DNA from: Candidatus Dojkabacteria bacterium
GTDB lineage: Bacteria; Patescibacteriota; Dojkabacteria; B142; OLB20
Reading direction: 5' to 3'
Length of the DNA: 64,000 bases
NCBI GenBank assembly: GCA_030583785.1
Contig: CP129475.1
Span: 768,845-832,844 of the forward strand
Part shown: piece by piece, positions 29,536-44,542 of the stretch
Numbering within the stretch: the first letter of the stretch is position 1
Layout: the number at the start of each line of letters is the position of its first letter
Notes under the pieces: model-generated
What the model saw: the letters and a program-made list of their open reading frames with translations, nothing else
The model's database searches: none
Told to the model about the DNA's origin: nothing
Translations under genes and position numbers: made by a program

Positions 29536-30342
29536 TTGTCTCGTATGAGCTATAATGCTTACGACATGAAATTACGCAAACAAAAAAATAGCATTGATCT
29601 TCTTAGAGAGCTTATCAAGACAAATCTTAAGCTTAGATACAACGATTCTTTGCTCGGTGTTCTTTGGGTAATGATGAAGCCACTACTCAATTTCTTGGTT
29701 CTGTTTTTTGTCTTTAGCGCATTTAGAGGTGGCGTTGATAAAGAAAATTATGCGGCAAGTCTACTGATTGGATTAATTGTCTATACCTTTATTCAAGAGG
29801 GAATCACTTTTGGTATGAACTCTTTGCTTAGTATGCAGGGAATCATTTTAAAAGTTAACTTTCCAAGAAATCTGGCCGTGCTCAGTGCCGTGCTAGTTTC
29901 TATGATCAACTTCTTTATTAATTTGTTTATCATTTTGCTACTGACTTTGTTTGTCAATTTTGTCCCAAATCCGCTAGGCGTATTGTATTTCTTCCTGATT
30001 ATGCTTGTTATTCTTGTGATCATCTATAGTGCTTCTTTGATTCTTAGCATATTAGTCATTCGCATTCGTGATCTTGAAAACATAGTGCCGATCTTTTTTC
30101 AATTACTCTTTTGGGGATCGGCAATTTTCTACGATATAAATAGCTTGTCCGGCACTGTTGGAGATATAGTTAGACATAATCCAGTTGCCATTTTAATCGA
30201 TGCCTCTAGGCAGGCTCTAATTAACGGTAGCTTTAATTATCTGCACGAGATGGCTTTTCTTGTAGTTGTAGCATTGGTAATGTTTGTAGTTTCTCGTTTG
30301 TTCTTCAATGTAGAAGTTAAAAAAATAGCAGAACATATATAA
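29536..30342 (+). CDS. wzm: ABC-2 type polysaccharide exporter permease (Wzm/TagG-like)
   Basis: Six TM helices with ABC-2 architecture. It is immediately followed by a Wzt-like ATPase with a 1-nt gap. Confidence 0.8.
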   Translation: MSRMSYNAYDMKLRKQKNSIDLLRELIKTNLKLRYNDSLLGVLWVMMKPLLNFLVLFFVFSAFRGGVDKENYAASLLIGLIVYTFIQEGITFGMNSLLSMQGIILKVNFPRNLAVLSAVLVSMINFFINLFIILLLTLFVNFVPNPLGVLYFFLIMLVILVIIYSASLILSILVIRIRDLENIVPIFFQLLFWGSAIFYDINSLSGTVGDIVRHNPVAILIDASRQALINGSFNYLHEMAFLVVVALVMFVVSRLFFNVEVKKIAEHI

Positions 30343-31638
30343 ATGGATAAACCAATAATCGAAGTAAAGAATTTAGACAAGAATTTTGTAATCCCCAGAG
30401 AGAAAAGGGACACATTAAAAAGTTATGTGATTAACCCGTTTAGAAAGATTCCAAAAGAAACATTTCGTGCTCTAAACGATGTTTCGTTTTCTATCAATGC
30501 CGGAGAATTTGTCGGGCTGATTGGCAGAAACGGTAGTGGTAAAAGTACTCTTTTGCAGCTTATTGCAGGAATATATGCACCTACCTCAGGTAGCGTCACG
30601 GTAAGAGGAAGTATTGTTCCTTTTCTACAATTAGGAGTTGGCTTTAACGATAATTTATCCGGAAGAGAGAATGTTTTTCTAAACGGTGCAATACTTGGAA
30701 TGAGTAGAAAATACCTTGAGAAGAAATACGAAGAAATTGTAGATTTTGCAGAGATTGAAGACTTTATGGATCTACAACTGAAAAACTATTCCAGTGGCAT
30801 GCGTGTTAGGTTGGCACTTGCGATTGCTGTCCAAGCAAAAGCTGACATCTATCTGTTAGACGAAGTATTGTCGGTTGGCGATGAATCCTTCCGTCAAAAG
30901 AGTTTAAAGAAGATGCAGGAAATGCTGACCAATGGAGCAACCGTTATGTATGTCAGCCATGGGTTGGAGTCAATCGAGCAAATTTGTTCTAGGGTTATTT
31001 ATCTTGAAGATGGCAAGCTGGCATACGATGGTAATGTTACAGAAGGGTTGTCGAGGTATCGGTTCTCTCTGCTGAACAAAGCTACTAGCAATAATGAGTC
31101 TCGATTCGGAAACGAAAAGAAATCCGAAGAGAAGCCATTAATGGCTGATGTCAATACAGAAAGGATCGAGATTGAAAGCATAATGATTGACGAGAGAGAA
31201 GATGGTTACGAAGTTGAAAGCAATAAGGATTTCTTGTTTAAAGTTAATATTAAGATCCTTGAAGATATTGATGATGATTTCTGGATTGGAGCTATGTTTT
31301 CTAGTGTAGATATACCAACTTCTGATGTTTACGGTTTCAGATATGACAACCTAGAAAAAAAGATACACCCAAAGGCCGGAGATCGATATTCATTTGAAAT
31401 TAAGTCACCTTTTCCTTTTAATCCTGGTAGTTATGTATGTAAATTTAAAATTGGATCACATGTTAAAGTTAAAAGGGCCGCTCATCTGAAAGACATTGAT
31501 TACTATCGTAAGGTGCACACAGAAGAACAGGGATACCTTCTAGCCAAGAGATCCTTCATTATTAACTGCTGTGGTGAAGATCGTAGATACTATTCCTTAA
31601 TTACATCTAAGAGTAGTATTTCCGTTGATAAAAAATAA
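30343..31638 (+). CDS. wzt: ABC transporter ATP-binding protein (Wzt/TagH-like) with a C-terminal extra domain of about 180 aa (putative glycan-terminus-binding domain)
   Basis: Walker A GRNGSGKST, signature YSSGMRVRLALA, and Walker B IYLLDEVLSVGD. The beta-rich C-terminal extension spans residues 250-431. Confidence 0.85.
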   Translation: MDKPIIEVKNLDKNFVIPREKRDTLKSYVINPFRKIPKETFRALNDVSFSINAGEFVGLIGRNGSGKSTLLQLIAGIYAPTSGSVTVRGSIVPFLQLGVGFNDNLSGRENVFLNGAILGMSRKYLEKKYEEIVDFAEIEDFMDLQLKNYSSGMRVRLALAIAVQAKADIYLLDEVLSVGDESFRQKSLKKMQEMLTNGATVMYVSHGLESIEQICSRVIYLEDGKLAYDGNVTEGLSRYRFSLLNKATSNNESRFGNEKKSEEKPLMADVNTERIEIESIMIDEREDGYEVESNKDFLFKVNIKILEDIDDDFWIGAMFSSVDIPTSDVYGFRYDNLEKKIHPKAGDRYSFEIKSPFPFNPGSYVCKFKIGSHVKVKRAAHLKDIDYYRKVHTEEQGYLLAKRSFIINCCGEDRRYYSLITSKSSISVDKK

Positions 31639-31762
31639 TGCTGGAAAACGAAGCCTATATGCATTATAATAACGGCTCAGCACTTTCTGATTGAGAATCT
31701 GTTTACAAAAATCTGCCAACAAGGTTAAAATCCTTATTAATTCTATATGATATCTAGGTAAT

Positions 31763-32899
31763 ATGAATCAGCCTCATGGTGGTGTTCTCATAAATCGCTT
31801 TGCAAATAAAGATAAACTTTCTTTTGATAATATAGCTCTGTCTATCGAGCTCGATGACGATCAGCTTAGTGAGGTTAAAAATATTGCAGTCGGAACATAT
31901 AGTCCATTAAACGGCTACATGAATAAAGATGACTTTGAAAGTGTTCTTGAGAAAGCTAGGTTAACAAACGGAGTACCATGGAGTGTTCCTGTATTTCTGC
32001 CTGTTTCCAAGGTAGATTATCGATGCATAAAAGTTGGTGGTCAGGTATCCTTGCGTTACAAAGGCAAAGATATTGCGCTTATGGAGGTCTCTGATAAATT
32101 TACCTTCGATGCAGAAAAGTATGTAAAAAGTGTTTATGGCACAACAGACCCCAATCACCCTGGAGTGGCGATGATTAATTCGCTAAGTACTTATGTCATC
32201 GGAGGAGAAATCTGGGTGTATGAAGAACTTCCATCCAAGTATCTTGAATTTGATTTACCTCCACAAAAAACGAGAGAGCTATTCGCCGAAAAAGGCTGGA
32301 ATACAGTCGTAGGTTTTCAGACTCGTAATGCAGCCCACCGTGCTCATGAATTCATTCAAAAGATGTGTCTTGAATTTGTTGATGGGTTATTCATTAATCC
32401 AATCATAGGCAAAAAGAAGAGCGGGGATTTTACAGACGAGGTCATCTTAGCTGTCTATAAAATGCTGGTAAGAGATTTTTATCCTGCCAACTCTACTGCT
32501 ATCGGTGTTTATAGTTCGAGAATGCACTATGCTGGTCCCAAAGAGGCAATCTTTCATGCGATAGTTCGAAAAAACTTCGGTTGTACACATTTTATTGTGG
32601 GTAGAGACCATGCCGGCGTGGGCGACTATTACGACAAATTTGCAGCACACAGAATATTCGATGAGTTTGAAGATATCGGAATTGTACCTATGCGAGTAAG
32701 TAATGCCTTCTTTGATAAAAAATCCGATATGTATACGACTCAAAAGGCGTCACCATTCGGACCAGAACATTGGATTTCTCCTAGTGGGACAGAAGTGCGC
32801 AGACTAATCAAAGAAAAAAATTATAAAGACTTGAAGTATATTCTTCGACCAGAAGTTTTGGAAGAAATTCTTAAGTTCAAAGAGCCCTTCGTGTTATAG
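31763..32899 (+). CDS. sat: Sulfate adenylyltransferase (ATP sulfurylase)
   Basis: N-terminal PHGGVLINR and the ATP-sulfurylase motifs QTRNAAHRAHE and GRDHAGVGDYY. Confidence 0.85.
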   Translation: MNQPHGGVLINRFANKDKLSFDNIALSIELDDDQLSEVKNIAVGTYSPLNGYMNKDDFESVLEKARLTNGVPWSVPVFLPVSKVDYRCIKVGGQVSLRYKGKDIALMEVSDKFTFDAEKYVKSVYGTTDPNHPGVAMINSLSTYVIGGEIWVYEELPSKYLEFDLPPQKTRELFAEKGWNTVVGFQTRNAAHRAHEFIQKMCLEFVDGLFINPIIGKKKSGDFTDEVILAVYKMLVRDFYPANSTAIGVYSSRMHYAGPKEAIFHAIVRKNFGCTHFIVGRDHAGVGDYYDKFAAHRIFDEFEDIGIVPMRVSNAFFDKKSDMYTTQKASPFGPEHWISPSGTEVRRLIKEKNYKDLKYILRPEVLEEILKFKEPFVL

Positions 32900-32919
32900 T
32901 AGATTTTTAATGCTTTAAT

Positions 32920-33453
32920 ATGAAGATAAGCAAGCCTTTCTGTCTTTGGTTTACAGGACTTCCTTCATCCGGAAAGACAACAACAGCATTAGCATTGAAA
33001 GATAAATTTACAGAGTCTGGAATAAATATCGTACATCTAGATGGAGATGTGGTTAGAAAGGGATTAAATTCTGACCTCGGTCTTTCTAAAGAAGATAGAG
33101 AAGAAAACAACAGAAGGGTTATTCATGTCTCCGAAATTGTTGTTGGTAGCGGCATTCCTGTAATAAGCTCTTTCATCTCTCCATATAAATCTACTCGAGA
33201 TTTTGCCAAATTAACAATTCCAAATTATATTGAGGTGTTTGTAAATACACCTTTAAAAGAATGTGAGAGACGCGATGTAAAGGGCCTTTACGCAAAAGCT
33301 AGAGCAGGTGAAATAAAAGGGTTAACCGGATACGACGACCCCTACGAAGAGCCTCTTGCTGCAGATATTATTCTGGATACTGTTGACCACGATCTAGAAG
33401 AAAATATGATTCAAATAATTTCCTTTCTAAGACAGCAGAATTTCATTAATTAA
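32920..33453 (+). CDS. cysC: Adenylylsulfate (APS) kinase
   Basis: P-loop FCLWFTGLPSSGKTT and the LDGDVVRKGLNSDLGLSKEDREENNRR motif typical of APS kinase. Confidence 0.85.
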   Translation: MKISKPFCLWFTGLPSSGKTTTALALKDKFTESGINIVHLDGDVVRKGLNSDLGLSKEDREENNRRVIHVSEIVVGSGIPVISSFISPYKSTRDFAKLTIPNYIEVFVNTPLKECERRDVKGLYAKARAGEIKGLTGYDDPYEEPLAADIILDTVDHDLEENMIQIISFLRQQNFIN

Positions 33454-33464
33454 TATCTTAACTA

Positions 33465-34364: not shown

Positions 34365-34408
34365 GGGTTGTGTACAATAGCTGTCCAGCTACTTTATAAA
34401 CTTAAGAT

Positions 34409-37400
34409 ATGGAAAAAACAAAAAAAGCAGCATGGCTGATTGATTATCCCATCAAGGGGTCTGGAGGACATAAAACATTCTTCTACTACATTAATCATCT
34501 GATAGAAATTGGTTACGAAGTCGATGTATATGTCTATGATTTTCTTGGAGTAAATGCTTCACCAGCAACTGACCCGTCTTCACTTGCTGCAGTTGTAGCC
34601 GACTATCTTATCCCTAGTCGGGCAAACTTTTATTATGGTTGGAAACCTAAAGGAGTCTACGATTTCATGTTTGCAACTTGGTTCCCGAATGCACCTGTTG
34701 TAGCTGATTATCCCTACGCAAAGCACAAAATCTTTTTTGAGCAGGAGTACGAACCATTCTTCACCATGATGGGTGATCAAACTATCAAAGCTCAAAATGC
34801 ATATCATCTTGGGCTTACAGGTATAACTATGGGAGGATGGCTAGCAAAAGAGCTGACTGCAAAACATAACATGGAGGCATATCCACTCTATCTGGGAGCC
34901 GACTTAGACTCGTATTACGATAAAGGTCGATTTAGAGATAATGCTGTGTGTTTTATCTATCAGTCTAATAAGCCACGCCGTTGTCCGCAACTTACGATAG
35001 AAACGATAGATGTTTTGCACGCAGTTGATCCAAGCATTCGCATCTATACTTTTGGTGGTGAAGATGTGCCACCTGTTGCCGGAGCTACGCATCAAGGGTT
35101 ATTGCGCATCAAAGACTTGAATAAACTTTATAATCAATGCAAGGTAGGCGTTGCTTACAGCACCACTAATCCTTCAAGAATTCCTTTTGAAATGATGGCT
35201 GCCGGATTACCTGTTGTTGAGCTTTATGCAGATAATAATCTCTACGATATACCTACAAAAGCTGCTTTGCTAGCAAAACCAGATCCATTTGCCGCAGCTA
35301 CTGCTATCTTAAAACTACTCAAAGACGAAAAATTGTGGGCAGAAAAGAGCCGAGGCGGCTTGGAATTTATGCGAACTAAGTCCTTAGACAAATCTGTAAA
35401 AGACTTCGCGAAGATTCTTTCTGATATTACTATCAGCAAGCAGAATCCGAATACCAAGATTGAAAAGCTTTATCTTGATAAACAGATTGATGCAGATCCG
35501 AGGTTGGTAAAGAAATATAATTATGTTAAAGCTACTCATTCAGACTTTCTAAAAACAGGAGATAAGCTCTCCTTTAACGGAAGCCTTACCAGATTCGCAA
35601 AGTATCAGGTCAAAAGAGCAGTAAGCCCGGTGCGTAGTTTCAAATCATTTGTCCTAAATCTTATTCAAAGTACTGTTTCTGTATCTAAGAACCTGATTTC
35701 CAGAGTTAAGCTGGAGCTGTTTATTCTGGGAAATACGAAACTATTCTCAAGCGACATCTTTGATACTTTAGTACGCAGAGAAGTACATCCAGATGAAATT
35801 AAGTTACGCTCAAGCTGGATGATGAAGCTAAAGTTTAACAATTATGCCAAGAGACTCTCAGTTTTAGAGCTCTTTGAACTCCGTAGATCAGTTGAATCAA
35901 AAATCGGGGCAGAGAATGTTGCTCAAGGAAAAGATCATGAATACGAACTTGAACAAGTATTTGAACAAGTATTACGAATAATTACACCAGACAGATCAAA
36001 GTTGTTCTACCAAGATAATGCTCGTCAGCTTGCTGAATGGGAAATGCAACACGAAATGAAGGTACTTTATCCAGATCGATTTGGGCAATCCGTATTTAAA
36101 CGGATTAAGGCCGAAACAAAAATTCTTTTGTCAGATTTCTATATGACTAAAGAGGCGCTGAATAAGATTCTGCCGCTTAAAGATATTCGTAGTGAAATCA
36201 AGCAGATCGTAAGTTCGGCAGACACAAGATTAAATAAAATCAGCGGTAGAGCTTATGATCACCTCCATAGAAGATTTAAGGTTAACCCTTCAGAGCATAA
36301 ACATCTCGGAGACAACAAATGGTCTGATTTCGAGAAACCAGCCAGTATCGGAATTAAATCAGCATTGTTTATAAATCCAAAGGAGGAAGAAAAACGGGCA
36401 GCTCTCAATGAGGCATTTTCTCAAAGACTAAACAAAGAGGGCTTTCCATACAAAGAAGAAATGGAATCTTTACTAAATGAGATCAAAGTCCCAGAAGGAT
36501 ATTCCAAAGAAGAGTCTGAGTTATTCAAGTTGGGTACAAAATATTCCCCGATTTACTTTTTCTATGTTCTTCAGCTTTGGGAAACAGCTTATAAGCTTGG
36601 AATCGAAACAATCCACTACTTCACTCGTGAGGGCATATTCTTTAAAAAGATTCACGATCAGTTCGCCAAACAGTCATTCTTTCCTTTTAAAGAAATTAAG
36701 TCAGATTTAATAGAAGTCAGCAGAATGTCTACTTTTGCAGCCTCTGTAGGTTCTGTTGAATTTTACGAACTTAAAAGAATTTGGAATCAGTACAAATATC
36801 AGTCAATTAATTCTTTTCTCGTTACACTTGGAATTGATCCAGCTCTATTTGCAGAAGATATTCAGAAGTTCAAGATTGATCCCGAAAAAGAGGTTGAAAT
36901 TTGGAAGGTTGCCAAGTATCAGGACTTGTTTGCAGATAAAAATTTCGTCGAAAAATTGCAAGGTATGCTCAATAAGAAAAGAGAGCTTCTTGTTGGATAC
37001 CTACAGCAGAAAGGGATAAGTCAGCAATCCAAGCAGGTACTGGTAAGCGATATAGGTTGGAGAGGCACTATACAAGATAACATTGCCAGAATATTCAATC
37101 AGGTGGACTTTTACGGAGTTTATCTAGGCTATATTCACCCACTAAATAATCAAGAATTTAATACATTCAAACATGCATACGGACCTTACTTTGTGAGTGA
37201 TGCTCCGTACTTTATGCAAATGCTTCATGGTGGAGCAACTTTTGTTGAGATGCTTTCCACTTCCCCTGGCGGAAGCACAATAGGCTATGAACATGCGGAT
37301 AAAAACAAAATTGTTGCCATAAAAGAAATCTCAAAAGTTGAAGACGAGTACATTCACAACAAATATGTTCGATTCTTCCAGGAAGGTGTAATTGCCTCGG

Positions 37401-37834
37401 TGGCAGCCCTTGCAAATTTTACAGACAAACATGCGCTACAGAGTTCCGAGGTGAGGCCTTATGTACTAAGGCTTATGGACGATTTAATCAAAAAGCCGAA
37501 TTACTTGTTTAGTAAGATATTCTTTAATCTTACCTACAGTGAAACATTTGGGGTGGGTGAGTATTTCGACATGAAGAAGAGATCAACCCTGAAAAAACGA
37601 AATCTTGTTCTTGCCGTAATCTCCAAATCAAGAAGAGAAAATATCGAAGAAGCAGTAAATAAATCGCAATGGAAACAGGGGTTCTGGAGATACCAAGATA
37701 GGCTTGGCATATTCAGCGTAGCCAGTAAGGTTTATTATGATTTGCAAAACGCCAGAAATGCTCTTGCTCCAAAAAGAAGGATATTGCAACTATTATCTAA
37801 AGTTGGGAAACTAAAAAAGAAAATACTTGGTTAA
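34409..37834 (+). CDS. Multidomain 1141-aa protein: N-terminal GT-B (GT4-like) glycosyltransferase domain plus about 800 aa of unassigned C-terminal region
   Basis: GT4-type E-x7-E motif IPFEMMAAGLPVVE around residue 255. The rest (…LVSDIGWRGTIQDN…) has no motif I can assign. Confidence 0.5.
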   Translation: MEKTKKAAWLIDYPIKGSGGHKTFFYYINHLIEIGYEVDVYVYDFLGVNASPATDPSSLAAVVADYLIPSRANFYYGWKPKGVYDFMFATWFPNAPVVADYPYAKHKIFFEQEYEPFFTMMGDQTIKAQNAYHLGLTGITMGGWLAKELTAKHNMEAYPLYLGADLDSYYDKGRFRDNAVCFIYQSNKPRRCPQLTIETIDVLHAVDPSIRIYTFGGEDVPPVAGATHQGLLRIKDLNKLYNQCKVGVAYSTTNPSRIPFEMMAAGLPVVELYADNNLYDIPTKAALLAKPDPFAAATAILKLLKDEKLWAEKSRGGLEFMRTKSLDKSVKDFAKILSDITISKQNPNTKIEKLYLDKQIDADPRLVKKYNYVKATHSDFLKTGDKLSFNGSLTRFAKYQVKRAVSPVRSFKSFVLNLIQSTVSVSKNLISRVKLELFILGNTKLFSSDIFDTLVRREVHPDEIKLRSSWMMKLKFNNYAKRLSVLELFELRRSVESKIGAENVAQGKDHEYELEQVFEQVLRIITPDRSKLFYQDNARQLAEWEMQHEMKVLYPDRFGQSVFKRIKAETKILLSDFYMTKEALNKILPLKDIRSEIKQIVSSADTRLNKISGRAYDHLHRRFKVNPSEHKHLGDNKWSDFEKPASIGIKSALFINPKEEEKRAALNEAFSQRLNKEGFPYKEEMESLLNEIKVPEGYSKEESELFKLGTKYSPIYFFYVLQLWETAYKLGIETIHYFTREGIFFKKIHDQFAKQSFFPFKEIKSDLIEVSRMSTFAASVGSVEFYELKRIWNQYKYQSINSFLVTLGIDPALFAEDIQKFKIDPEKEVEIWKVAKYQDLFADKNFVEKLQGMLNKKRELLVGYLQQKGISQQSKQVLVSDIGWRGTIQDNIARIFNQVDFYGVYLGYIHPLNNQEFNTFKHAYGPYFVSDAPYFMQMLHGGATFVEMLSTSPGGSTIGYEHADKNKIVAIKEISKVEDEYIHNKYVRFFQEGVIASVAALANFTDKHALQSSEVRPYVLRLMDDLIKKPNYLFSKIFFNLTYSETFGVGEYFDMKKRSTLKKRNLVLAVISKSRRENIEEAVNKSQWKQGFWRYQDRLGIFSVASKVYYDLQNARNALAPKRRILQLLSKVGKLKKKILG

Positions 37835-37843
37835 ATTAATACC

Positions 37844-38821
37844 TTGAAAATATCAGTCGTCATCAACACCCTAAATAGACCTGAACAGGTTTCCTTGTGC
37901 CTAGAGTCACTTAGACTCCAGACTTATAAGGATTTCGAGGTGATAGTAGTAGATCAGTCACGCAACAGGAGAACAAAAGAAGTCTGTAAGCCTTACAATC
38001 TTAAATACTACCGCATTAAAAAGCGCAATAACCTTTCAATATCCAGAAATTTTGGAATCAACATGGCAGCAGGCGAGATCGTTGCCTTTATCGATGACGA
38101 TGCACAGGCAAAAGAGGACTGGATCGAACGAATTTCAAATCATTTTTTGCAAGATGATAAACCTGGATTCATTGCAGGTAGAGTTATTGATGTCTCAGAC
38201 AGTGAGAATCCCGTTACCCAGTTTCAAAACGGAATTGTTTCTGCCTTCGGCTACAGTGAAGATATCCGCCCCACAGATGAAAAAAGATATCAAAGGGGGC
38301 ATGCAGGGTGGTATGTTCGACCGATGGGTGCAAATATGGTTTTTCAAAAAAAATCTCTAGAAAAAATCGGCGGATTCGATGAATTCTATGAATATATTCA
38401 CGACGAAACAGATGTCGCAGTTCGGGTTATTAAGTCAGGGGATTATGGTTTGTATGATGATTCATTAATTGTTTATCACAACCCAGCTCTTGGTAGAAAC
38501 CGTAAACGCAAAAGATTCAGTACAAATTGGTATGCACTTACAAAAAATAACATATATTTTGCTCTTAAAAATGGATCTGGAATTTTGCCATTAAGGGTTT
38601 TAAGGTCTTTCTGGAGAGTACTTGGAGCTCGCGGACCATTCATTGCTTTGTTCAAGCTATTTTTGCACCGAAAAATTTCAATATTTAGTTACATGTTTGG
38701 AAACATTCGAAGCGGTTTAGGGCTTCTTAAAGGGTTCTTCTGGGGAACGAGAAAAAAGAGGAAGCTTATGAAAGTTACTGAACCATCTGCATATTTATTG
38801 TTTGCAAAAAGACATGGATAA
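37844..38821 (+). CDS. Family 2 glycosyltransferase
   Basis: MKISVVINTLNRPEQV…FEVIVVDQS and the DXD motif FIDDDA. Confidence 0.8.
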   Translation: MKISVVINTLNRPEQVSLCLESLRLQTYKDFEVIVVDQSRNRRTKEVCKPYNLKYYRIKKRNNLSISRNFGINMAAGEIVAFIDDDAQAKEDWIERISNHFLQDDKPGFIAGRVIDVSDSENPVTQFQNGIVSAFGYSEDIRPTDEKRYQRGHAGWYVRPMGANMVFQKKSLEKIGGFDEFYEYIHDETDVAVRVIKSGDYGLYDDSLIVYHNPALGRNRKRKRFSTNWYALTKNNIYFALKNGSGILPLRVLRSFWRVLGARGPFIALFKLFLHRKISIFSYMFGNIRSGLGLLKGFFWGTRKKRKLMKVTEPSAYLLFAKRHG

Positions 38822-39173
38822 ACAAAGTGAAAATGCCAAAATGTTTGTATCTAGAATGAGAGAACTACTAAATGAAGAGGAACTGGGTGGCATGAGAAGA
38901 GAAGATGATCCAGATGTACTAATTCGCGAGTATGTATTGCCCGCTCTTGAATCAAGTAAGAATGTGCTTGCAGATTTGTACCATGACATTCATGGAGGTA
39001 GCGGACCGTTTGCTAAAATCAAACGCATAATAATAACCAAGGTTGCCAACATCTCCAGAAATACTATGGAACGGAGTATGATATCCCAACAGAGATACAA
39101 CGACATGGTTTATACTCTGCTTAAATATTTGTACGAAAAAAACAGTACATCTTCACCCAATAAGAAAAAATGA
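38802..39173 (+). CDS. Hypothetical small cytoplasmic protein, translationally coupled to both flanking GT genes
   Basis: 123-aa ORF that overlaps the GT2 end by 20 nt and overlaps the next start by ATGA. No motif recognised. Confidence 0.35.
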   Translation: MQKDMDKQSENAKMFVSRMRELLNEEELGGMRREDDPDVLIREYVLPALESSKNVLADLYHDIHGGSGPFAKIKRIIITKVANISRNTMERSMISQQRYNDMVYTLLKYLYEKNSTSSPNKKK

Positions 39174-41347
39174 GAATCCAAATTATTGGTCCCTTTGTTT
39201 CCGAATATTCTTTGGCCAGGGTAAATAGGGCAATAGCAGAAAAACTAAGACACGATCATAAAAATATAAAGCTTTCATTCTTCTCTCCAAAATATCTGTC
39301 AGGCAGTGCCGTAACCAAGTCCGATATAAAGAAGTATCCAATCCTGGAGACCCTTGTCGATGATATAGATCAAGAAGCAGATGTTCATCTTTATAGCGCT
39401 TTCCCAAAAAGCACTGCAGACAATTTAGGATTAGAGATGTTGTGTGGAAAAATTAATGCTGCCTTAATTGCATGGGAAGAAAGCGTTTTTCCAGAAAAAT
39501 GGGTGCAAGAAATCAATATGCATCTTGATGCGGTTTTTGCAATTAGTAGCCATGTGGCAAGGATTCTTGAAAGATGCGGGGTAAGAGTGCCAATCAGCAT
39601 ATTAAGCTTAGGCGTTAGCAAAGTTGAAGCCGATAATAATTATAAACTTGACTTACAGACAAGCTTCAATTTCTTGCATATTAGCTCAGGCCATATGCGT
39701 AAGGGCTTAGACTTATTGTTGCAGGCTTTCGTAGAAGAGTTCTCGCAATCTGATGAAGCTGGGCTAATTATCAAAGCACTTCCGAATCCGAATTTTAATG
39801 CCAAAAATTTCATTAAGAGTGCCAAAGGTGTCGAAGGTAGAGTTGTTCTAATTGAGGACAGTAATTTGTCAGATGCTCAAATTGCCAGTCTATATGAATA
39901 TTCTGATTGTGTGGTGCTTCCTGCTCGTGTTGAGGGGTTTAATCTGCCTGCAGCAGAGGCGATGCTCTATGAACGACCTTTAATTACAACTGCCTATAGT
40001 GGTCATTTAGATTTTTGCAATGAAACCAATTCAAGATTACTACCATACACAATTGTGCCTGCAACAGGGTCCCACTTGGCACTACCGGGTTCAAAATGGG
40101 CTGAACCAGATATCTCGGCATTAAAAACCGAGATGAGAAATATTTATAAGAATCGAGAAGTTTTTAATCGTATGGTAGCTAAGGCTAGATCGGATATTAG
40201 CAATTTCACTTGGGATAATACTGCAAGTCGCTTGCTAGAACAACTTCGGCTTTACTTGGCTATCAAAAATGCCGGTTCAATAAAGCTAGACCTAGTAAGT
40301 CCTTTTTATTCTCAAGGTGGGGTTTCGGAGTATTCTGCTGATTTATATCGTTCTTTGCCGAAGAATATTGAAGTCGAGATTCACGCTGATAAAACCAGTT
40401 CACCTACAAATACTTCTGAACCAGTAAAGCGAGATTGGTCTTCAGGGCGTGGCAAACAGCAAGAACTCATGTCGGCCTTGACTGGAAGGGACATAGTTCA
40501 TATTCAATACCATACAGATTTCTTTCCGGTGTCAATTCTAAGAGATTTGATCGCAGTTCCAAGCAAGTGCATATTGACTCTGCATATCTTAACCGCTGAA
40601 ATGACTAACACCGAAACAATTGAAGCCTTTAAAAAGTGCTCAAAGATTTATGTTCATAACCAAAGGGATTTTAATACTCTAGAATCAAAAGGGCTAAAGA
40701 ATATTCAGTTGTTCACGCATGGAATAATAGATTTTCCAGATCACTTAAGGTCAATGCTTAGATCCAGAATCGGGATCTCTGCAACAAAAGTCATTGCCAC
40801 ACATGGGCTTCTTCACGATAGAAAAGGGGTACTTGAGCTGATAGAGGCATTGGCGCTAATAAAATCGCAGATTCCGGATATTTTACTGTTATGTTTGACA
40901 GCGGTCAGCAGTCAATCTCTAAGCTCGCAGAGTATTTTCAAGAAATGTTTGAATCTTATCAGAGAAAGGAATCTTGAAGAAAATGTCATTTTTATTCCAG
41001 ACTATCTTGCTAGAGAAGAAGTATTATTTGGATTACAGATGGCAGATTTAATTGTTCTTCCGTATGCAGAACTACCAGAAGGGTCGAGTGGCGCGATTCG
41101 TACATGCGCTGCTGCCAAGAGACCAATCCTCTGCACAGAGTCAACAATATTTACGGACTTTCCTGCTGCAGAGAGAATTTCTGATAATAATCCAAAAACA
41201 ATTGCGGATGAAGTTATTGCGATGTTAAACGATGAGGGGCCCTTGCACTCGGCTGAAAGCAAGGTAAGACAATTCGTTGCTTCAAACCAATGGAGGAATC
41301 TTTCGTTGGAGTATTTTCGAGACTTAGCTCAAATAAGTGCATCCTGA
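39170..41347 (+). CDS. Tandem double-GT4 glycosyltransferase (two GT-B modules in one polypeptide)
   Basis: Two E-x7-E motifs, EGFNLPAAEAMLYERPLITT and EGSSGAIRTCAAAKRPILCT. This architecture resembles serotype-specifying mannosyltransferase-type polymerases. Confidence 0.75.
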   Translation: MRIQIIGPFVSEYSLARVNRAIAEKLRHDHKNIKLSFFSPKYLSGSAVTKSDIKKYPILETLVDDIDQEADVHLYSAFPKSTADNLGLEMLCGKINAALIAWEESVFPEKWVQEINMHLDAVFAISSHVARILERCGVRVPISILSLGVSKVEADNNYKLDLQTSFNFLHISSGHMRKGLDLLLQAFVEEFSQSDEAGLIIKALPNPNFNAKNFIKSAKGVEGRVVLIEDSNLSDAQIASLYEYSDCVVLPARVEGFNLPAAEAMLYERPLITTAYSGHLDFCNETNSRLLPYTIVPATGSHLALPGSKWAEPDISALKTEMRNIYKNREVFNRMVAKARSDISNFTWDNTASRLLEQLRLYLAIKNAGSIKLDLVSPFYSQGGVSEYSADLYRSLPKNIEVEIHADKTSSPTNTSEPVKRDWSSGRGKQQELMSALTGRDIVHIQYHTDFFPVSILRDLIAVPSKCILTLHILTAEMTNTETIEAFKKCSKIYVHNQRDFNTLESKGLKNIQLFTHGIIDFPDHLRSMLRSRIGISATKVIATHGLLHDRKGVLELIEALALIKSQIPDILLLCLTAVSSQSLSSQSIFKKCLNLIRERNLEENVIFIPDYLAREEVLFGLQMADLIVLPYAELPEGSSGAIRTCAAAKRPILCTESTIFTDFPAAERISDNNPKTIADEVIAMLNDEGPLHSAESKVRQFVASNQWRNLSLEYFRDLAQISAS

Positions 41348-41796
41348 ATTGCTTCTGCATCTTGTTTTTCTGGAGTCTTAAACACCCAAAGTTTGTAAAC
41401 CAAAAAGGTCCAAGATACCTGAAGCCCAGTGACGACGATTTTTGCCGGAACAGGATTAAGAAACACCACATATAGAAGAAATCCAAGGATTGCATTATTC
41501 GTTACATAGTTGAATGAAGCAATACTTACATATCTAAAGAGCTTCTGCTTCTTCTTTTTCCCACCTGCCTTGAATGTCCAGTAATTTGAGGCAAGGAAGT
41601 TAAACACAAGTGATAGAAGCAAAGAGATTACATTTGCAGAAAGCGGGGCGACAGAGAATACAAAAATTAGTGTATTAAAGATTAGAAAATCCAGTCCAAA
41701 CGAAGAAAAACCGACTATCAAATAGCGAACAAAGTTGATTCCCAAGGTTTTTCTTGCTCTGTTAACGAGTCTGGTTATCATAGTTTGCCGAATCAA
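41329..41796 (-). CDS. gtrA: GtrA-family small membrane protein
   Basis: INFVRYLIVGFSSFGLDFLIFNTLIFV and 4 TM helices, adjacent to a GtrB-like GT2. Confidence 0.65.
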   Translation of the reverse strand: MIRQTMITRLVNRARKTLGINFVRYLIVGFSSFGLDFLIFNTLIFVFSVAPLSANVISLLLSLVFNFLASNYWTFKAGGKKKKQKLFRYVSIASFNYVTNNAILGFLLYVVFLNPVPAKIVVTGLQVSWTFLVYKLWVFKTPEKQDAEAIQDALI

Positions 41797-42859
41797 TTAT
41801 TTTGGAAAGCTTGTCTGCGCTTTTTTCCCAGCTGTAGTTGTCAGATAGATAATCCGGGCTGGATTTTGATTTTTTTTCCTTAACCAAAGAAACCAAACCC
41901 GTGCCAATGCTTTCTACACTTTGCTGATTGCAATAACGAACTTTGTCGCCTAAGGTTTCATGAAAGATTGGAATATCTGAAACGAGTAGGGGAAGACCAT
42001 GATAAAGCGCTTCAATCGGAGGAATCCCGAAACCTTCGTAATGGCTAATGTATACAAACGCTTTGGCCTGACTGTAGAGCATTGAAAGATCTTCGTCAGC
42101 AATGTATCCGGCAAGTATAACTTTCTTTTCTAGATTGTTTTCGATTATTGTTTTGTATATCTCCTCAAAATACCAACCTTTTTTGCCAACAATGACTAAT
42201 GGAATATTTAATTGATCCTTGTATTTCGCATATGCTGTAATAAGATTAATGTAGTTTTTTCTGGGTTCTAATGTGCCAACGCTGAGAATGAATTCGGCCG
42301 GCAGGCTTTGAATTAACTCAGATGCAAGGACATCTTTGGAAGACTTGGTTATCCAGGGATTTAGACCTGGGTAGAGGACCTCAATATCATTTCGTTTTTG
42401 TTTTGAATATTCTTCAAGCTCCTTTTTAATTGTATTTGAGACTGTAACGATCTTCCAGGCTTTTTTCATAGCCTTTGACAGAGATCTTTTATACTTAAAT
42501 GCTGCTAAAGCAGGGAAGTAGTTCGGGAATTTCAGGGGCGCGATATCATGCACAAACTGTATTGTTTTTGGGAAATACCAACTAAATGAATGATTTGATG
42601 GAGAAATAAAAATATCTACCGAGTGTTTTTTTGCATGTTTTGCCACGGCTTTAATCCAGCGTTTTCCTGAAAAGGGAAGACTTCTGTTTACTTTTATGAC
42701 AACATTTTTTGTATGTGGGAGAAGCCGAGGAGTTCGTGTATAAACAATGTACTCATTTTTCTTGTCGTGTTCTACGAGTTCGGAGACTAAATTTATAGTG
42801 TATTGACCTATACCTGCAGGAGAGTCTTCGACAGGTGATAAATCTATAGCAATTTTCAT
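41762..42859 (-). CDS. Family 4 glycosyltransferase
   Basis: EGFGIPPIEALYHGLPLLVSD, a GT4 E-x7-E motif. Confidence 0.8.
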   Translation of the reverse strand: MKIAIDLSPVEDSPAGIGQYTINLVSELVEHDKKNEYIVYTRTPRLLPHTKNVVIKVNRSLPFSGKRWIKAVAKHAKKHSVDIFISPSNHSFSWYFPKTIQFVHDIAPLKFPNYFPALAAFKYKRSLSKAMKKAWKIVTVSNTIKKELEEYSKQKRNDIEVLYPGLNPWITKSSKDVLASELIQSLPAEFILSVGTLEPRKNYINLITAYAKYKDQLNIPLVIVGKKGWYFEEIYKTIIENNLEKKVILAGYIADEDLSMLYSQAKAFVYISHYEGFGIPPIEALYHGLPLLVSDIPIFHETLGDKVRYCNQQSVESIGTGLVSLVKEKKSKSSPDYLSDNYSWEKSADKLSKIIDSANYDNQTR

Positions 42860-43548
42860 TTATTAAATCTTAATCTAAGTATCTGACTCATTATATCGAT
42901 TCCATCTTTCAAATTGATTTTCTTTCCGTCTTTTTTGCCTCTGGGGAAATATTCAATATCTAGTTCTTTAATTTTCCATTTCTTTTTTAGGGCTTTTACT
43001 ACCCATTCAATTTCTAGGCCAAATCTTTCAGATTCAATATGCAGAGACTTGAAGCTGTTTAACTTGCAGAGTTTGTATGCGCATAAAGGGTCTTTAATGC
43101 TCCTGCCAAAGCAAATAAACAGCATTATTCTTGTGATAAATCTGGCTAGTTTCGTAACGAAATTCACCTTATCTCTTAGTAGTCTGCTACCTGCAACCAT
43201 ATCCACCTTATCTGTATTTATGATATGAAGCATTCGCAGAATGTCCTGCGGGTCGAGTTCGGAGTCGGCATCTTCAACGATCATGTATTTACCTTTGGCA
43301 TGGGCTGCACCATTAAGAACAGCAGCGCCTTTACCTTTATTTTTGGCATGAAGTATTAGTTTTAGCCTAAGTTCGGGCTGCAGTTTTTTTAATAATTCCC
43401 TACTTCCGTCTGTGGAATAATCATCGATAACGATGATTTCTTTGTCGACATCAAGTTCGTGTATCGTTCTTACAACATGCTCGACCGTCTTTATCTCGTT
43501 CCAGACAGGGATAATGATACTGATTTCAGGTTGTCGAATTTTAAGCAT
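42856..43548 (-). CDS. gtrB: Polyprenyl-phosphate sugar synthase, GT2 (GtrB/DPM1/ArnC-like). The track ORF extends to 43629; an internal start at 43548 avoids overlap with galE.
   Basis: ISIIIPVWNE…IVIDDYSTDGS, the DXD motif VEDADS, and a C-terminal hydrophobic region. Confidence 0.7.
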   Translation of the reverse strand: MLKIRQPEISIIIPVWNEIKTVEHVVRTIHELDVDKEIIVIDDYSTDGSRELLKKLQPELRLKLILHAKNKGKGAAVLNGAAHAKGKYMIVEDADSELDPQDILRMLHIINTDKVDMVAGSRLLRDKVNFVTKLARFITRIMLFICFGRSIKDPLCAYKLCKLNSFKSLHIESERFGLEIEWVVKALKKKWKIKELDIEYFPRGKKDGKKINLKDGIDIMSQILRLRFNK

Positions 43549-44542
43549 AATCGGTTTTTGGTCTTTTTTGTTCCCATTCCCAAGCACTGCTAATGATGTC
43601 TTCGAGATCGTATTTTGCTTTCCAGCCAATCATTTTTTCAATTTTGCTTGGATCTGCAATTAAACTTGCTGAATCCCCTATTCTTCTTGGGGCAACTTCA
43701 TAATTGATTTTTTTGCCTGTAATGGCTTCTGCTGATTGGATTACTTCAAGAATACTTGTTCCTTTGCCTGTACCAATATTGAATACTTCGAAACCCTTGT
43801 TGGCCATGACATAATCTATGCAGGTGGCGTGTGCTTCTGCTAGATCAACGATATGAATATAATCCCTAACGGCTGTTCCGTCAGGAGTATCATAATCGTT
43901 TCCGAAAACCTTCATGACAAAATCGTCTGTAGTTAAGCCATGAAGTAGTCTTGGTATGAGGTGGGTTTCTGGGTTGTGTCGTTCTCCGATAAGGCCGTTA
44001 TAGGAGCCTGCAGGATTGAAGTATCTAAGTGCAACAACATTTACATCGGCAAAATTCGCATAACTTCTAAGAATCTCTTCTGTGACATATTTAGTCATGG
44101 CATAAGGGTTCTCTAAGCTGATTTTGTCAGTTTCTTTAATGGGGACAGATTCAGGTGTGCCGTAAACTGCAGCAGATGACGAGAAGATGAAGTTTTTGTT
44201 CCCGTTAGCGATCAAGGCATCAAATAGAAATTGGCTACCAACAACATTATTATTAACAAAGGCCACTGGTTTTTCAGTTGAAATGCCAACTTCGATAGAT
44301 GCTGCAAAGTGTATAACTGCATCAAAGGTTCGGTTTTCAAGAGCATGTTGCAGTTCTTGCTGGTTTTGAAGTTCGAGCTTTAAAAGTTCAAAATCCCCTG
44401 CTTCAGATCTTAGGGTCTCGAGTATGTCTTCTTTGTGTTTTTGCAGATGATCGAGAATTGTGACTTTATGACCTGCCTTGATTAGTGTCAGTGCAGTATG
44501 TGAGCCTATATAACCCGCTCCTCCTGTGATAAGAATGTTCAT
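43541..44542 (-). CDS. galE: UDP-glucose 4-epimerase
   Basis: MNILITGGAGYIGSH Rossmann motif, YAMTKYVTE (YxxxK), and the SDR extended family. Confidence 0.85.
   Translation of the reverse strand: MNILITGGAGYIGSHTALTLIKAGHKVTILDHLQKHKEDILETLRSEAGDFELLKLELQNQQELQHALENRTFDAVIHFAASIEVGISTEKPVAFVNNNVVGSQFLFDALIANGNKNFIFSSSAAVYGTPESVPIKETDKISLENPYAMTKYVTEEILRSYANFADVNVVALRYFNPAGSYNGLIGERHNPETHLIPRLLHGLTTDDFVMKVFGNDYDTPDGTAVRDYIHIVDLAEAHATCIDYVMANKGFEVFNIGTGKGTSILEVIQSAEAITGKKINYEVAPRRIGDSASLIADPSKIEKMIGWKAKYDLEDIISSAWEWEQKRPKTDYA

Follow-up and report, generated by a model that had tools for sequence, protein, structure and literature searches.

Rhizobia have a second set of PAPS-synthesis genes that lies outside the cys regulon and is dedicated to a glycoconjugate sulfotransferase encoded with it (NodP/NodQ-NodH for sulfated Nod factor, LpsS for sulfated LPS), and the locus described here, which lies in a 64-kb stretch of DNA (the window), is alike in this respect. 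The rhizobial NodPQ is, however, an ATP sulfurylase of the CysD/CysN-CysC type whereas the window encodes one of the homo-oligomeric Sat type, and in rhizobia the sulfate goes onto a lipochitooligosaccharide or LPS instead of onto a polymer that leaves through Wzm/Wzt with a cap-reading domain.

Cap-reading exporters and ribofuranosyltransferases have a framework in the literature (PMC11231755, PMC9445017), the known caps being methyl, methyl-phosphate, Kdo and pyruvate, with sulfate unreported (PMC9445017). The systems of E. coli O8/O9a (= Klebsiella O5/O3), Klebsiella O12/O4/O7 and Aquifex aeolicus WzmWzt have in common with the window a Wzm and a Wzt with a C-terminal carbohydrate-binding domain, and in the cap-dependent O-antigen systems polymerisation is cytoplasmic and carried out by multi-module glycosyltransferases, as we propose here; Klebsiella O4 and O7 also use a PRPP-dependent ribofuranosyltransferase with a HAD phosphatase (PMC11231755). 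Unlike them, the window comes from a host for which neither an outer membrane nor LPS is known, its locus gave no coiled-coil ruler protein, and in place of a methyltransferase, kinase or Kdo transferase there is a sulfotransferase with its own PAPS synthesis.

ABC transporters that export lipid-linked polymers in a Gram-positive-type envelope, as proposed here, are known from the S-layer glycan (slg) cluster of Geobacillus stearothermophilus (WsaF) and from wall teichoic acid export by TagGH. A WsaF-like GT4 module in the window polymerase recalls the former, a near-equal score of the window Wzt ATPase domain against TagH/TarH the latter, and one related locus (L088) has an LCP ligase near the homologous polymerase, but the window has no rml genes, O-oligosaccharyltransferase or TagF-type polymerase. 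Bcs3 of Haemophilus influenzae type b is a multienzyme polypeptide with the same pairing of ribofuranosyltransferase and phosphatase, but it also contains a ribitol-phosphate transferase and its capsule product is uncapped, whereas the partner module in the window is a GT4. Gene order is similar in the O-antigen cluster of Aeromonas salmonicida A450, where a long Wzt, a sulfotransferase-like ORF and a polymerase of ~1100 aa follow one another, but sat and cysC are absent from that cluster, and its polymer gave no sign of sulfate (PMC4483657).

Gene content of the locus

The host is bin WS6-2, a member of the Dojkabacteria (WS6, CPR) from wastewater anammox granules, with a genome of ~1.0-1.17 Mb, and the guess of a small-genome, low-GC lineage made from the letters was right. 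The features of the locus are as follows.

29536..30342 (gene callers start at 29566, 258 aa), plus strand: wzm, ABC-2 permease of the glycan exporter (Pfam ABC2_membrane, E 6.9e-12)
30343..31638, plus strand: wzt, exporter ATPase (ABC_tran, E 4.7e-24), with a nucleotide-binding domain at ~aa 1-250 and a C-terminal carbohydrate-binding domain at ~aa 261-431 (nt 31123-31635)
31639..31762, plus strand: wzt-sat spacer of 124 bp; most related loci have the two genes overlapping or abutting
31763..32899, plus strand: sat, homo-oligomeric ATP sulfurylase, sulfate + ATP to APS (PUA_2 and ATP-sulfurylase, E 4e-74)
32920..33453, plus strand: cysC, APS kinase, APS + ATP to PAPS (APS_kinase, E 2.5e-55)
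33465-34364 (ORF; callers' ATG at 33471, 297 aa), plus strand: PAPS-dependent sulfotransferase, Sulfotransfer_2 (carbohydrate-type)
34409..37834, plus strand: 1141-aa multidomain polymerase candidate (WsaF_C, E 1.3e-9; weak HAD_2 match)
37844..38821, plus strand: GT2 glycosyltransferase (Glycos_transf_2, E 7e-27; 61% identity to the L086 orthologue)
38802-39173 (ORF; callers 38814..39173, 119 aa), plus strand: small conserved ORF, not a glycosyltransferase; position kept in L086 and L095
39170..41347, plus strand: tandem double GT4 glycosyltransferase, 725 aa (two stretches each of Glycos_transf_1 and Glyco_trans_1_4)
41329..41781 (ORF to 41796), minus strand: gtrA, GtrA-family small membrane protein, convergent with the plus-strand operon (GtrA_DPMS_TM, E 3.7e-21)
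41762..42859, minus strand: GT4 glycosyltransferase (Glycos_transf_1, E 1.2e-29; Glyco_transf_4, E 8e-13)
42856..43548 (ORF to 43629), minus strand: GtrB-like GT2 of the polyprenyl-phosphate sugar synthase type (Glycos_transf_2, E 8e-32)
43541..44542, minus strand: galE, UDP-glucose 4-epimerase, precursor supply (TIGR01179, 379.5 against a cutoff of 262.3)
48541..49629, minus strand: ManC-like mannose-1-phosphate guanylyltransferase (NTP_transferase and ManC_GMP_beta-helix)

Significant profile matches were obtained for wzm, wzt, sat, cysC, the sulfotransferase and galE where the original prediction had placed them, but its count of six glycosyltransferase genes has to be lowered to five. Of the four genes it had read as glycosyltransferases on the plus strand, the GT2, the double GT4 (NCBIfam matches place the second module at aa 526-710; L095 and, at 37% identity, L086 have orthologues) and the 1141-aa protein stood, while the small ORF, 46% identical to its L086 counterpart, had no match in Pfam and NCBIfam searches and was ruled out. 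The gtrA-GT4-gtrB-galE set predicted on the minus strand is present, but gtrA encodes a small membrane protein of the GtrA family and was likewise ruled out as a glycosyltransferase. The GtrB-like gene ends at 43548 according to the gene callers, giving an 8-nt overlap with galE, and its best NCBIfam matches (AglJ, ArnC, PpgS) were all below cutoffs. This convergent set is putatively part of the same polymer's pathway, and for gtrA itself we infer a share in the pathway of the plus-strand operon; in L089, too, a GtrA gene paired with a short GT2 is found with the homologous polymerase. Further out, the expected ManC and ATP-citrate lyase genes were found, with the two-subunit lyase standing between the ManC-like gene and the glycan locus; the ManC-like protein scored 199.8 against TIGR01479 (below the cutoff of 373), and it is possibly a precursor supplier for the locus, its membership being uncertain.

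The 1141-aa protein had been taken for a glycosyltransferase, which holds for its GT4 module, but a fused PRPP-dependent ribofuranosyltransferase had been overlooked. Its N-terminal part comprises a GT4/WsaF-like GT-B domain (aa 1-345) and a flexible helical linker (346-440), and is followed by a HAD-type phosphoribosyl phosphatase (~442-690), a PRPP-dependent phosphoribosyltransferase (~700-1058) and basic C-terminal helices. A phmmer search matched aa 448-1058 to 7shg, a 'ribofuranosyl transferase' (E 2.4e-41), and also matched Bcs3, while Foldseek with the AF2 model (pLDDT 87.5) matched 7shg (E 3e-30, TM 0.68 on target) and, for the N-terminal domain, GT4 structures with WsaF among them. 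Residues D449, D452, T453, K610 and D640 are invariant, and PRPP synthetase genes adjoin the polymerase orthologues in L087 and L088. The protein is thus confidently predicted, from homology and the model, to combine a GT4 hexosyltransferase-like module with a PRPP-dependent ribofuranosyltransferase and its HAD phosphatase.

PAPS synthesis and proposed sulfation

Sat scored 449 bits against NCBIfam NF003166 (cutoff 387) and CysC 201.6 against TIGR00455 (cutoff 138.7), and from these assignments the two enzymes are clearly predicted to turn sulfate into APS and then PAPS. The adjoining gene, proposed as a sulfotransferase, matched Sulfotransfer_2 in the Pfam check with 87.7 bits (gathering score 22), identifying its predicted product as a PAPS-type sulfotransferase of a carbohydrate family; its tail (aa 263-298 in ORF numbering, ~36 residues) is basic and helical, and distant homologues (27-28% identity) occur in Mesorhizobium genomes. 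At the same position in related loci it is replaced by members of the Sulfotransfer_1/3 families, with four copies in L086, suggesting that sulfation persists although the enzyme itself changes. Its substrate could in principle be a lipid, an S-layer or other protein or a small molecule, leaving the Wzm/Wzt glycan unsulfated, but we regard this as improbable, since Sulfotransfer_2 is a carbohydrate sulfotransferase family, all homologue contexts examined were glycan or teichoic-acid-type loci, and the gene is flanked by the PAPS-synthesis genes on one side and the polymerase gene on the other, all in one same-strand run with intergenic gaps of 9-44 bp.

Sat and CysC are also the standard opening steps of PAPS-dependent assimilation, and could have come to lie beside glycan genes by accident while serving cysteine and methionine synthesis. 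Against this, cysH, cysI/J, cysK and a sulfate permease were found neither in the 64-kb window nor in any Pfam-annotated related locus, and a genome of ~1 Mb in WS6 goes with limited biosynthetic capacity (PMC4821891). The window and L086, L087, L093 and L106 each have at least one sulfotransferase. The comparison across related genomes called for by the original prediction also argues against accident. The window Sat matches a protein named 'Candidatus Dojkabacteria bacterium' at 100% identity and falls in a clade of ~19 clusters (52-64% identity), outside which identity is at most 49% and the named matches are archaeal. In 12 of the 15 Dojkabacteria loci of this clade (the window, L086, L087, L093, L094, L095, L106, L108, L111, L112, L113 and L114) the gene immediately upstream of sat is a wzt with a binding domain, and the two overlap by 4-8 nt in L086, L093 and L095; in L107 the pair is divergent and 2 kb away, and L109 and L110 have no Wzm/Wzt beside sat. 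Such coupling was seen in 0 of 60 control loci with a more distant Sat (at most 47% identity), so the arrangement is clade-specific and beyond chance, and we consider assimilation very improbable. The proposal that sat and cysC feed the adjacent carbohydrate-type sulfotransferase from within a Wzm/Wzt glycan operon is supported by this gene context. No sulfate importer or PAP phosphatase was found within the window.

A run of Lgt-Fmt-ORF232-Wzm-Wzt-Sat-CysC-sulfotransferase(s)-polymerase is kept in two other Dojkabacteria (L086 and L087, polymerases of 1126/1143 aa), and in L086 goes on with the GT2, small ORF and double GT4. Sat and CysC, the most conserved products of the locus, are 61-66% identical across loci (CysC, at 62-66% to its L086/L087 orthologues, is the best-conserved gene), GT2a 61%, and the exporter, polymerase and double GT4 37-54% (wzm 47-54%, the polymerases only 42-43%). 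Independent loci of similar composition were found in L006, where a wzt with a binding domain is followed by cysC, a CysQ-like PAP phosphatase, an ORF, a sulfotransferase and three GT2 genes, and in L090, with a sulfotransferase, cysC and a 672-aa HAD protein weakly similar to the ribofuranosyltransferase part. In a 19-kb promoter scan, which as a whole gave no excess over shuffles, the two best plus-strand promoter-like matches lay inside the wzt-sat spacer.

Synthesis of activated sulfate beside an exporter, a sulfotransferase and sugar-adding enzymes makes a sulfated, ribofuranose-containing polysaccharide coating the cell the most likely product, and on this gene content the locus is probably a Dojkabacteria cell-surface glycan operon making an ABC-transporter-dependent polymer, sulfated with PAPS from the operon itself.

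Export and the proposed place of the sulfate

The best NCBIfam match of Wzm is the Wzm/RfbD galactan exporter permease (below cutoff), and a phmmer alignment of Wzt with the Aquifex aeolicus Wzt 8dku (E 7e-56) reaches into the binding domain of the latter. Pfam Wzt_C gave 21.6 bits, under the gathering score of 30.4, and the binding-domain assignment rests instead on PDB matches and on a profile of Wzt C-terminal domains, which matched isolated A. aeolicus domains (8dky and 6o14, E ~3e-15), K. pneumoniae O12 (5hno, 4e-5) and E. coli O9a (2r5o, 7e-5). Wzm/Wzt can thus be firmly predicted to be an exporter of the O-antigen/teichoic-acid type whose ATPase carries a carbohydrate-binding domain, and this domain, an addition to the original prediction, is by homology of the kind that reads a chain-end cap.

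Our default reading is that sulfate would decorate the chain. It is possible, though we hold it only tentatively, that each chain is instead sulfated once, at its non-reducing terminus, which would halt elongation and create the epitope that the Wzt binding domain requires for export, as methyl, methyl-phosphate or Kdo do in E. coli O8/O9a and Klebsiella O12/O4/O7. Such a domain marks cap-dependent export in all characterised systems (PMC11231755, PMC9445017), and the sulfotransferase is the sole non-glycosyltransferase modifying enzyme of the window locus. The tightest conserved unit is wzm-wzt-sat-cysC, with glycosyltransferases and sulfotransferases varying, and the polymerase gene is immediately preceded by one for a sulfotransferase in the window, L086 and L087, but by one for a methyltransferase in L088. 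While the Wzt ATPase domain is conserved between species, the C-terminal domain retains only 13-20% identity, a divergence that a variable terminal epitope would lead one to expect, and in Aeromonas salmonicida, where wzt (438 aa), an ORF with a sulfotransferase domain and WbbB follow in order, the bulk O-antigen showed no sulfate (PMC4483657). Four sulfotransferases in L086 and three in L091, however, fit decoration at several sites better, and a search for a coiled-coil molecular ruler gave none (at 34 residues, the longest helix predicted in the polymerase is about the length of the sulfotransferase tail). A test for a conserved basic residue in the binding pocket failed on wider sampling: at the position aligned to Aquifex Thr346, the first six loci have Lys or Arg, but another five sat-linked Wzt domains have Gln, Trp, Trp, Glu and Trp. 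The cap could instead be a terminal sugar added by a glycosyltransferase module.

With sulfate as a decoration, the pathway would run as follows. The GT2 and double GT4 would build a primer on a polyprenyl-phosphate carrier at the cytoplasmic face, after an initiating enzyme encoded elsewhere, and the 1141-aa protein would polymerise a hexose-ribofuranose repeat with ribose from PRPP and UDP-Gal or GDP-Man from GalE and possibly the ManC-like enzyme. The sulfotransferase, which its basic helical C-terminus would keep at the membrane, would sulfate the lipid-linked chain in the cytoplasm before export, the Wzt binding domain would recognise the chain end, and Wzm/Wzt would then export the finished chain, which outside the cell a ligase encoded elsewhere would attach to the Gram-positive-like envelope. 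The window contains no initiating phosphoglycosyltransferase, LCP ligase or O-antigen-ligase-like enzyme, and so we infer the carrier and the final attachment.

As the original prediction had supposed for this lineage, a literature search gave no paper that connects sulfotransferases with Dojkabacteria, sulfation goes unmentioned in a 2026 review of the phylum, and a sulfated-glycan pathway of this kind is previously undescribed for Dojkabacteria. Teichoic acids owe their charge to phosphodiesters, whereas that of the window polymer would come from sulfate esters; if the proposed pathway is true, the polymer would provide a phosphate-free negative charge and be functionally teichoic-acid-like.

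The gene run and the organism that carries it

Six-frame ORFs and profile searches bore out the gene run as it had originally been predicted, with the genes from wzm through the double GT4 gene all on the plus strand and separated by gaps of 0-124 bp, and with a further set lying convergently on the minus strand:

29536-30342, plus strand, wzm
30343-31638, plus strand, wzt
31763-32899, plus strand, sat
32920-33453, plus strand, cysC
33471-34364, plus strand, Sulfotransfer_2 enzyme
34409-37834, plus strand, 1141-aa protein
37844-38821, plus strand, GT2
38814-39173, plus strand, small conserved ORF
39170-41347, plus strand, double GT4
41329-44542, minus strand, gtrA, GT4, GtrB-like GT2 and galE

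Six glycosyltransferase genes had been proposed; there are five, with at least seven catalytic modules between them, and neither the small conserved ORF nor gtrA encodes a glycosyltransferase. Rfam and tRNA scans of the 64-kb window were empty, and a promoter and terminator scan gave no matches in excess of those in shuffled sequence. Three ORFs (28828-29526, 38802-39173 and 47615-48535) had no sequence match in Pfam, NCBIfam or the PDB. The first of these, a plus-strand ORF of 232 aa, is kept directly 5' of wzm in four compared loci (L086, L087, L106 and L111; 38-41% identity in L086 and L087) and contains an HTHPKH...SPVD stretch resembling the JAB/MPN metalloprotease motif; in L094, another of the compared loci, a RadC gene occupies this position upstream of wzm.

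A CysC identical to that of the window is encoded on JYPD01000025.1 (GCA_001567305.1) and in many public read-set assemblies, and the Sat is 100% identical to a protein named "Candidatus Dojkabacteria bacterium". The expectation of a small-genome, low-GC lineage was correct, the organism being a member of the CPR/Patescibacteria. JYPD00000000 is the 1.0-Mb bin WS6-2 of candidate phylum WS6, recovered from the partial-nitritation/anammox granules at Olburgen that were studied by Speth et al. 2016, who placed WS6 organisms in the anaerobic granule core and made no mention of sulfur or polysaccharide genes in them (PMC4821891). In that 2016 draft (L003) several genes are fragmented, among them wzm, Lgt, the minus-strand GT4 and the gene for the 1141-aa protein. 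The window and other assemblies have all of them whole, and the splits are probably sequencing errors rather than pseudogenisation.

Several other genes of the window are of note in their own right. Beyond galE, and before a ManC-like gene, lie a two-subunit ATP-citrate lyase (44554-47612, minus strand; Citrate_bind, Citrate_synth_N, CoA-ligase and citrate-synthase domains) and the 306-aa ORF without family match (47615-48535, minus strand). The lyase is unexpected in a CPR genome of about 1 Mb from a presumed simple fermenter, and may supply acetyl-CoA from citrate. The isoleucyl-tRNA synthetase (21694-25746, minus strand; 1350 aa) matches Pfam tRNA-synt_1 over residues 18-672 but reaches no further than positions 2-265 of the profile, so that an insertion several hundred residues long is implied. 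A single plus-strand ORF (10636-11466) fuses a HEPN domain to a nucleotidyltransferase (Polbeta/NTP_transf_2), domains which usually form a two-gene toxin-antitoxin pair. Also on the minus strand are tandem signal peptidase I paralogues (20341-21003 and 21040-21687) and a 240-aa cohesin-domain protein (51626-52348), a possible surface-assembly component.

The sulfotransferase and its genomic link, through PAPS synthesis, to the exporter

The predicted sulfotransferase withstood the profile searches and fold prediction that had been proposed as its check, matching Sulfotransfer_2 (PF03567) from position 6 to the end of the 252-position profile (87.7 bits, gathering score 22, E 1.8e-24) and giving a confident AlphaFold model of the sulfotransferase fold (pLDDT 87). 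PAPS-type binding motifs are present: the 5'-phosphosulfate-binding loop T34-P-K36-V-A-C-S40 fits PKxxxS/T with its catalytic lysine, and F-V-R98-N-P-Y-T-R103-I-L-S106 supplies the 3'-phosphate-binding R...S motif. In an alignment of 36 homologues (28-44% identity) K36, R98, N99, P100, R103 and S106 are invariant. The last 36 residues are modelled as two basic helices, which look like a membrane-association tail. Homologues among the matches listed come mainly from Proteobacteria, Bacteroidota and Cyanobacteria, and every homologue context inspected was a glycan or teichoic-acid-type locus; from this context and the Sulfotransfer_2 family, sulfuryl transfer to a carbohydrate acceptor is predicted.

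The alternative that sat and cysC form part of an assimilatory cys operon is very unlikely, since linkage to PAPS/APS reductase and sulfite reductase was absent from the 64-kb window and from the annotated related loci (including L006 and L090, described below); within that range the original claim that the two genes stand apart from cysH/cysI held.

Comparison with related genomes, the other check proposed at the outset, found the linkage of wzt to sat kept throughout much of a Sat clade, and this is the strongest part of the evidence. Two other Dojkabacteria loci (L086 and L087) share the order Lgt-Fmt-ORF232-Wzm-Wzt-Sat-CysC-sulfotransferase(s)-polymerase, continuing in L086 with GT2, the small ORF and the double GT4, despite a polymerase only 42-43% identical to the 1141-aa protein of the window. 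Their sulfotransferases (four copies in L086 and two in L087) belong to other families, Sulfotransfer_1/3, and so the sulfation function is kept while the enzyme is swapped.

Identity to the window's proteins in the Dojkabacteria loci L086 and L087
Sat: 61-62%
CysC: 62-66%
GT2a: 61% (L086 only)
Wzm: 47-54%
Wzt: 49-50%
Polymerase: 42-43%
Double GT4: 37% (L086 only)

The Sat clade comprises about 19 clusters at 52-64% identity; outside it identity is at most 49% and the named matches are archaeal. Another three members of the clade have wzm, wzt and sat in this order, and in two of these wzt and sat share 8 nt. Nine further informative loci of the clade came from a metagenome scan, and wzt with its binding domain lies directly upstream of sat in six; in one it is divergent from sat, 2 kb away and beside GT4 genes, and two are without wzt. 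The same coupling was found in none of 60 control loci, which have a more distant Sat and enough upstream sequence to judge.

Outside the clade, locus L006 has the order wzt (with binding domain)-cysC-CysQ-like PAP phosphatase-ORF-sulfotransferase (46% identical)-three GT2 genes, and in locus L090 a sulfotransferase and cysC are accompanied by a 672-aa HAD protein whose similarity to the ribofuranosyltransferase part of the 1141-aa protein is weak (BLASTP E 1e-10, 21% identity). When a genome collection was scanned with the sulfotransferase alignment, L006 alone among the 80 matches listed joined wzm/wzt, cysC and sulfotransferase (three others had cysC and three others a Wzt-like ATPase within 10 kb), and thus the full combination is rare outside the Dojkabacteria lineage among the matches listed, which included neither CPR loci nor the window's own genome.

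Two other arrangements were seen in metagenomes. Three loci (L142, L148 and L149; Sat 39-43% identical) carry a sulfotransferase-like gene between sat and cysC, a compact PAPS-plus-sulfotransferase cassette in unrelated lineages and without Wzm/Wzt. In L110, whose Sat (58% identical) falls within the clade, the genes around sat-cysC encode two WaaP/Kdo-family kinases, a methyltransferase and two proteins of the type I phosphodiesterase family, and no exporter is close by, a context of another kind for this Sat clade.

The exporter, the polymerase and the chain end

The ABC-2 permease and Wzt ATPase genes adjoin (30342/30343), and the ATPase domain is like those of both O-antigen Wzt and teichoic-acid TagH. 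Beyond it Wzt has approximately 170 extra C-terminal residues, which score below threshold against Pfam Wzt_C in the window protein (21.6 against a gathering score of 30.4); orthologues in related loci give unmarked Wzt_C matches. A profile built from this region of seven related loci matches the isolated carbohydrate-binding domains of Aquifex aeolicus Wzt (8dky and 6o14, E about 3e-15), as well as the Wzt structures of Klebsiella O12 (5hno, E 4e-5) and E. coli O9a (2r5o, E 7e-5), and by these profile matches Wzt is assigned a C-terminal carbohydrate-binding domain. In all characterised systems such a domain binds a cap at the non-reducing end and so licenses export, the known caps being methyl, methyl-phosphate and Kdo (PMC11231755; PMC9445017). 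In assemblies of the same species as the window (L101-L105) contigs end 324-705 nt upstream of sat, and several of these independent read-set assemblies break within wzt, in or near the carbohydrate-binding domain, which hints at strain-level variation in the exporter region.

The 1141-aa protein matches, over aa 448-1058, the Thermobacillus composti polysaccharide ribofuranosyltransferase 7shg (E 2.4e-41) and the Hib capsule polymerase Bcs3, and a Foldseek search with its model also found 7shg (E 3.4e-30, TM 0.68 on target). The AlphaFold model (pLDDT 87.5) has five regions: an N-terminal GT-B domain (aa 1-345) matching GT4 enzymes including WsaF, a flexible helical linker, a HAD domain, a phosphoribosyltransferase domain and basic C-terminal helices. 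The HAD catalytic residues D449, D452, T453, S575, D576, K610, G634 and D640 are invariant in 26 homologues. Enzymes of this class move ribofuranose-5-phosphate from PRPP and the phosphate is then removed (PMC11231755). PRPP is the predicted donor here as well, PRPP synthetase genes adjoining the polymerase orthologues in L087 and in a further compared locus, L088. Given the ribofuranosyltransferase and GT4 modules and these adjacent synthetases, it is therefore plausible that the protein is a two-module polymerase for a hexose-ribofuranose repeat, which would make it comparable to Klebsiella O4.

We consider it quite probable that the locus makes a cytoplasmically sulfated glycan exported by Wzm/Wzt. 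The chain would be built and sulfated on a polyprenyl carrier at the cytoplasmic face, exported once the binding domain recognises the chain end, and then fixed in place on the Gram-positive-like envelope. A sulfated neutral backbone would, by analogy, serve as a phosphate-free polyanion in the manner of a teichoic acid. No ligase, initiating transferase, sulfate importer or PAP phosphatase was found in the 64-kb window, so these four functions must lie elsewhere or be absent; an LCP ligase gene does lie near the homologous polymerase in L088, and the initiating polyprenyl-phosphate glycosyl-1-phosphate transferase (WecA/TagO/WbaP type), absent among the window ORFs, may be encoded elsewhere in the genome.

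A more specific and distinctly tentative proposal is that the sulfate ester is itself the export cap, of a previously unreported class, read by the Wzt binding domain. The conserved core joins a cap-reading exporter with PAPS synthesis, and the sulfotransferase is the only non-glycosyltransferase modifying enzyme in the locus. Its gene follows those for PAPS synthesis and precedes that of the polymerase, a position taken by a methyltransferase in L088; the binding domain also evolves fast. However, several relatives have multiple sulfotransferases, which suggests decoration along the chain, and a crude heptad scan together with two AF2 models (polymerase and sulfotransferase) found no coiled-coil that could act as a length-setting ruler in any locus protein, the longest modelled helix of the polymerase having 34 residues and those of the sulfotransferase tail about 21 and 14. 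Were sulfate the cap, the four-gene cassette of wzm, wzt with binding domain, sat and cysC would couple PAPS synthesis to the exporter while interchangeable sulfotransferases and glycosyltransferases would diversify the polymer. The product would then be an anionic wall glycopolymer, free of phosphate, made by a CPR bacterium, and the sulfated glycoconjugates known chemically from the anammox granule matrix would have in it a genetically defined source.

A conserved basic pocket residue was also considered as support for an anionic cap. In the Aquifex domain Thr346 and Ala348 line the methyl pocket (PMC9445017), and K367 and K369 of the window Wzt align with them, anchored on the conserved PGxY motif. 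The K367 column, the only class-conserved polar one, reads KRKRRK in the first six Dojkabacteria domains, against a K/R background of 18% in 57 diverse Wzt domains, but the residue is Q, W, W, E and W in another five sat-linked domains, and K367 was dropped as support for this reason.

Relation to known systems and significance

All parts of the locus are known families, and its working would resemble that of O-antigen pathways of the polymerase/terminator type and that of the export of wall teichoic acid and of the Geobacillus S-layer glycan; the logic of a dedicated PAPS supply is similar to that of rhizobial NodPQ-NodH. The novelty lies in how these parts are put together: PAPS synthesis has a translational link to an exporter that carries a cap-reading domain, sulfotransferases stand in the place usual for methyl, phosphate or Kdo terminators, and all this occurs in a CPR lineage. 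A literature search found no publication linking Dojkabacteria with sulfotransferases and none joining sulfotransferase, coiled-coil, chain termination and ABC transporter. Two papers that touch on CPR, sulfate adenylyltransferase and PAPS together had, by their abstracts, no bearing on the subject, and in a 2026 review of Dojkabacteria neither sulfation nor teichoic acids nor polysaccharides come up.

Measurements have shown sulfated glycoconjugates in the matrix of granular sludges of the anammox, aerobic and anaerobic kinds. Which organisms make them, and by what genes and pathways, is a recognised gap, and homology searches that started from reference sulfotransferases were largely unsuccessful (PMC10483923). 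The organism of the window inhabits anammox granules (PMC4821891), and the locus offers marker genes for producers of these compounds in granules. The tight wzt-sat-cysC linkage provides a simple genomic signature by which metagenomes can be searched for sulfated glycans of bacteria. Should sulfate prove to be the export cap, the small set of known caps would grow and the co-evolution of exporter and cap chemistry would be shown.

The lifestyle of CPR/Patescibacteria relies on attachment to other cells, and to our knowledge almost nothing is known of their surface chemistry. The operon gives a concrete, testable prediction of a sulfated, ribofuranose-containing polymer, and it has been kept across a Dojkabacteria clade although genome reduction strips most biosynthesis.
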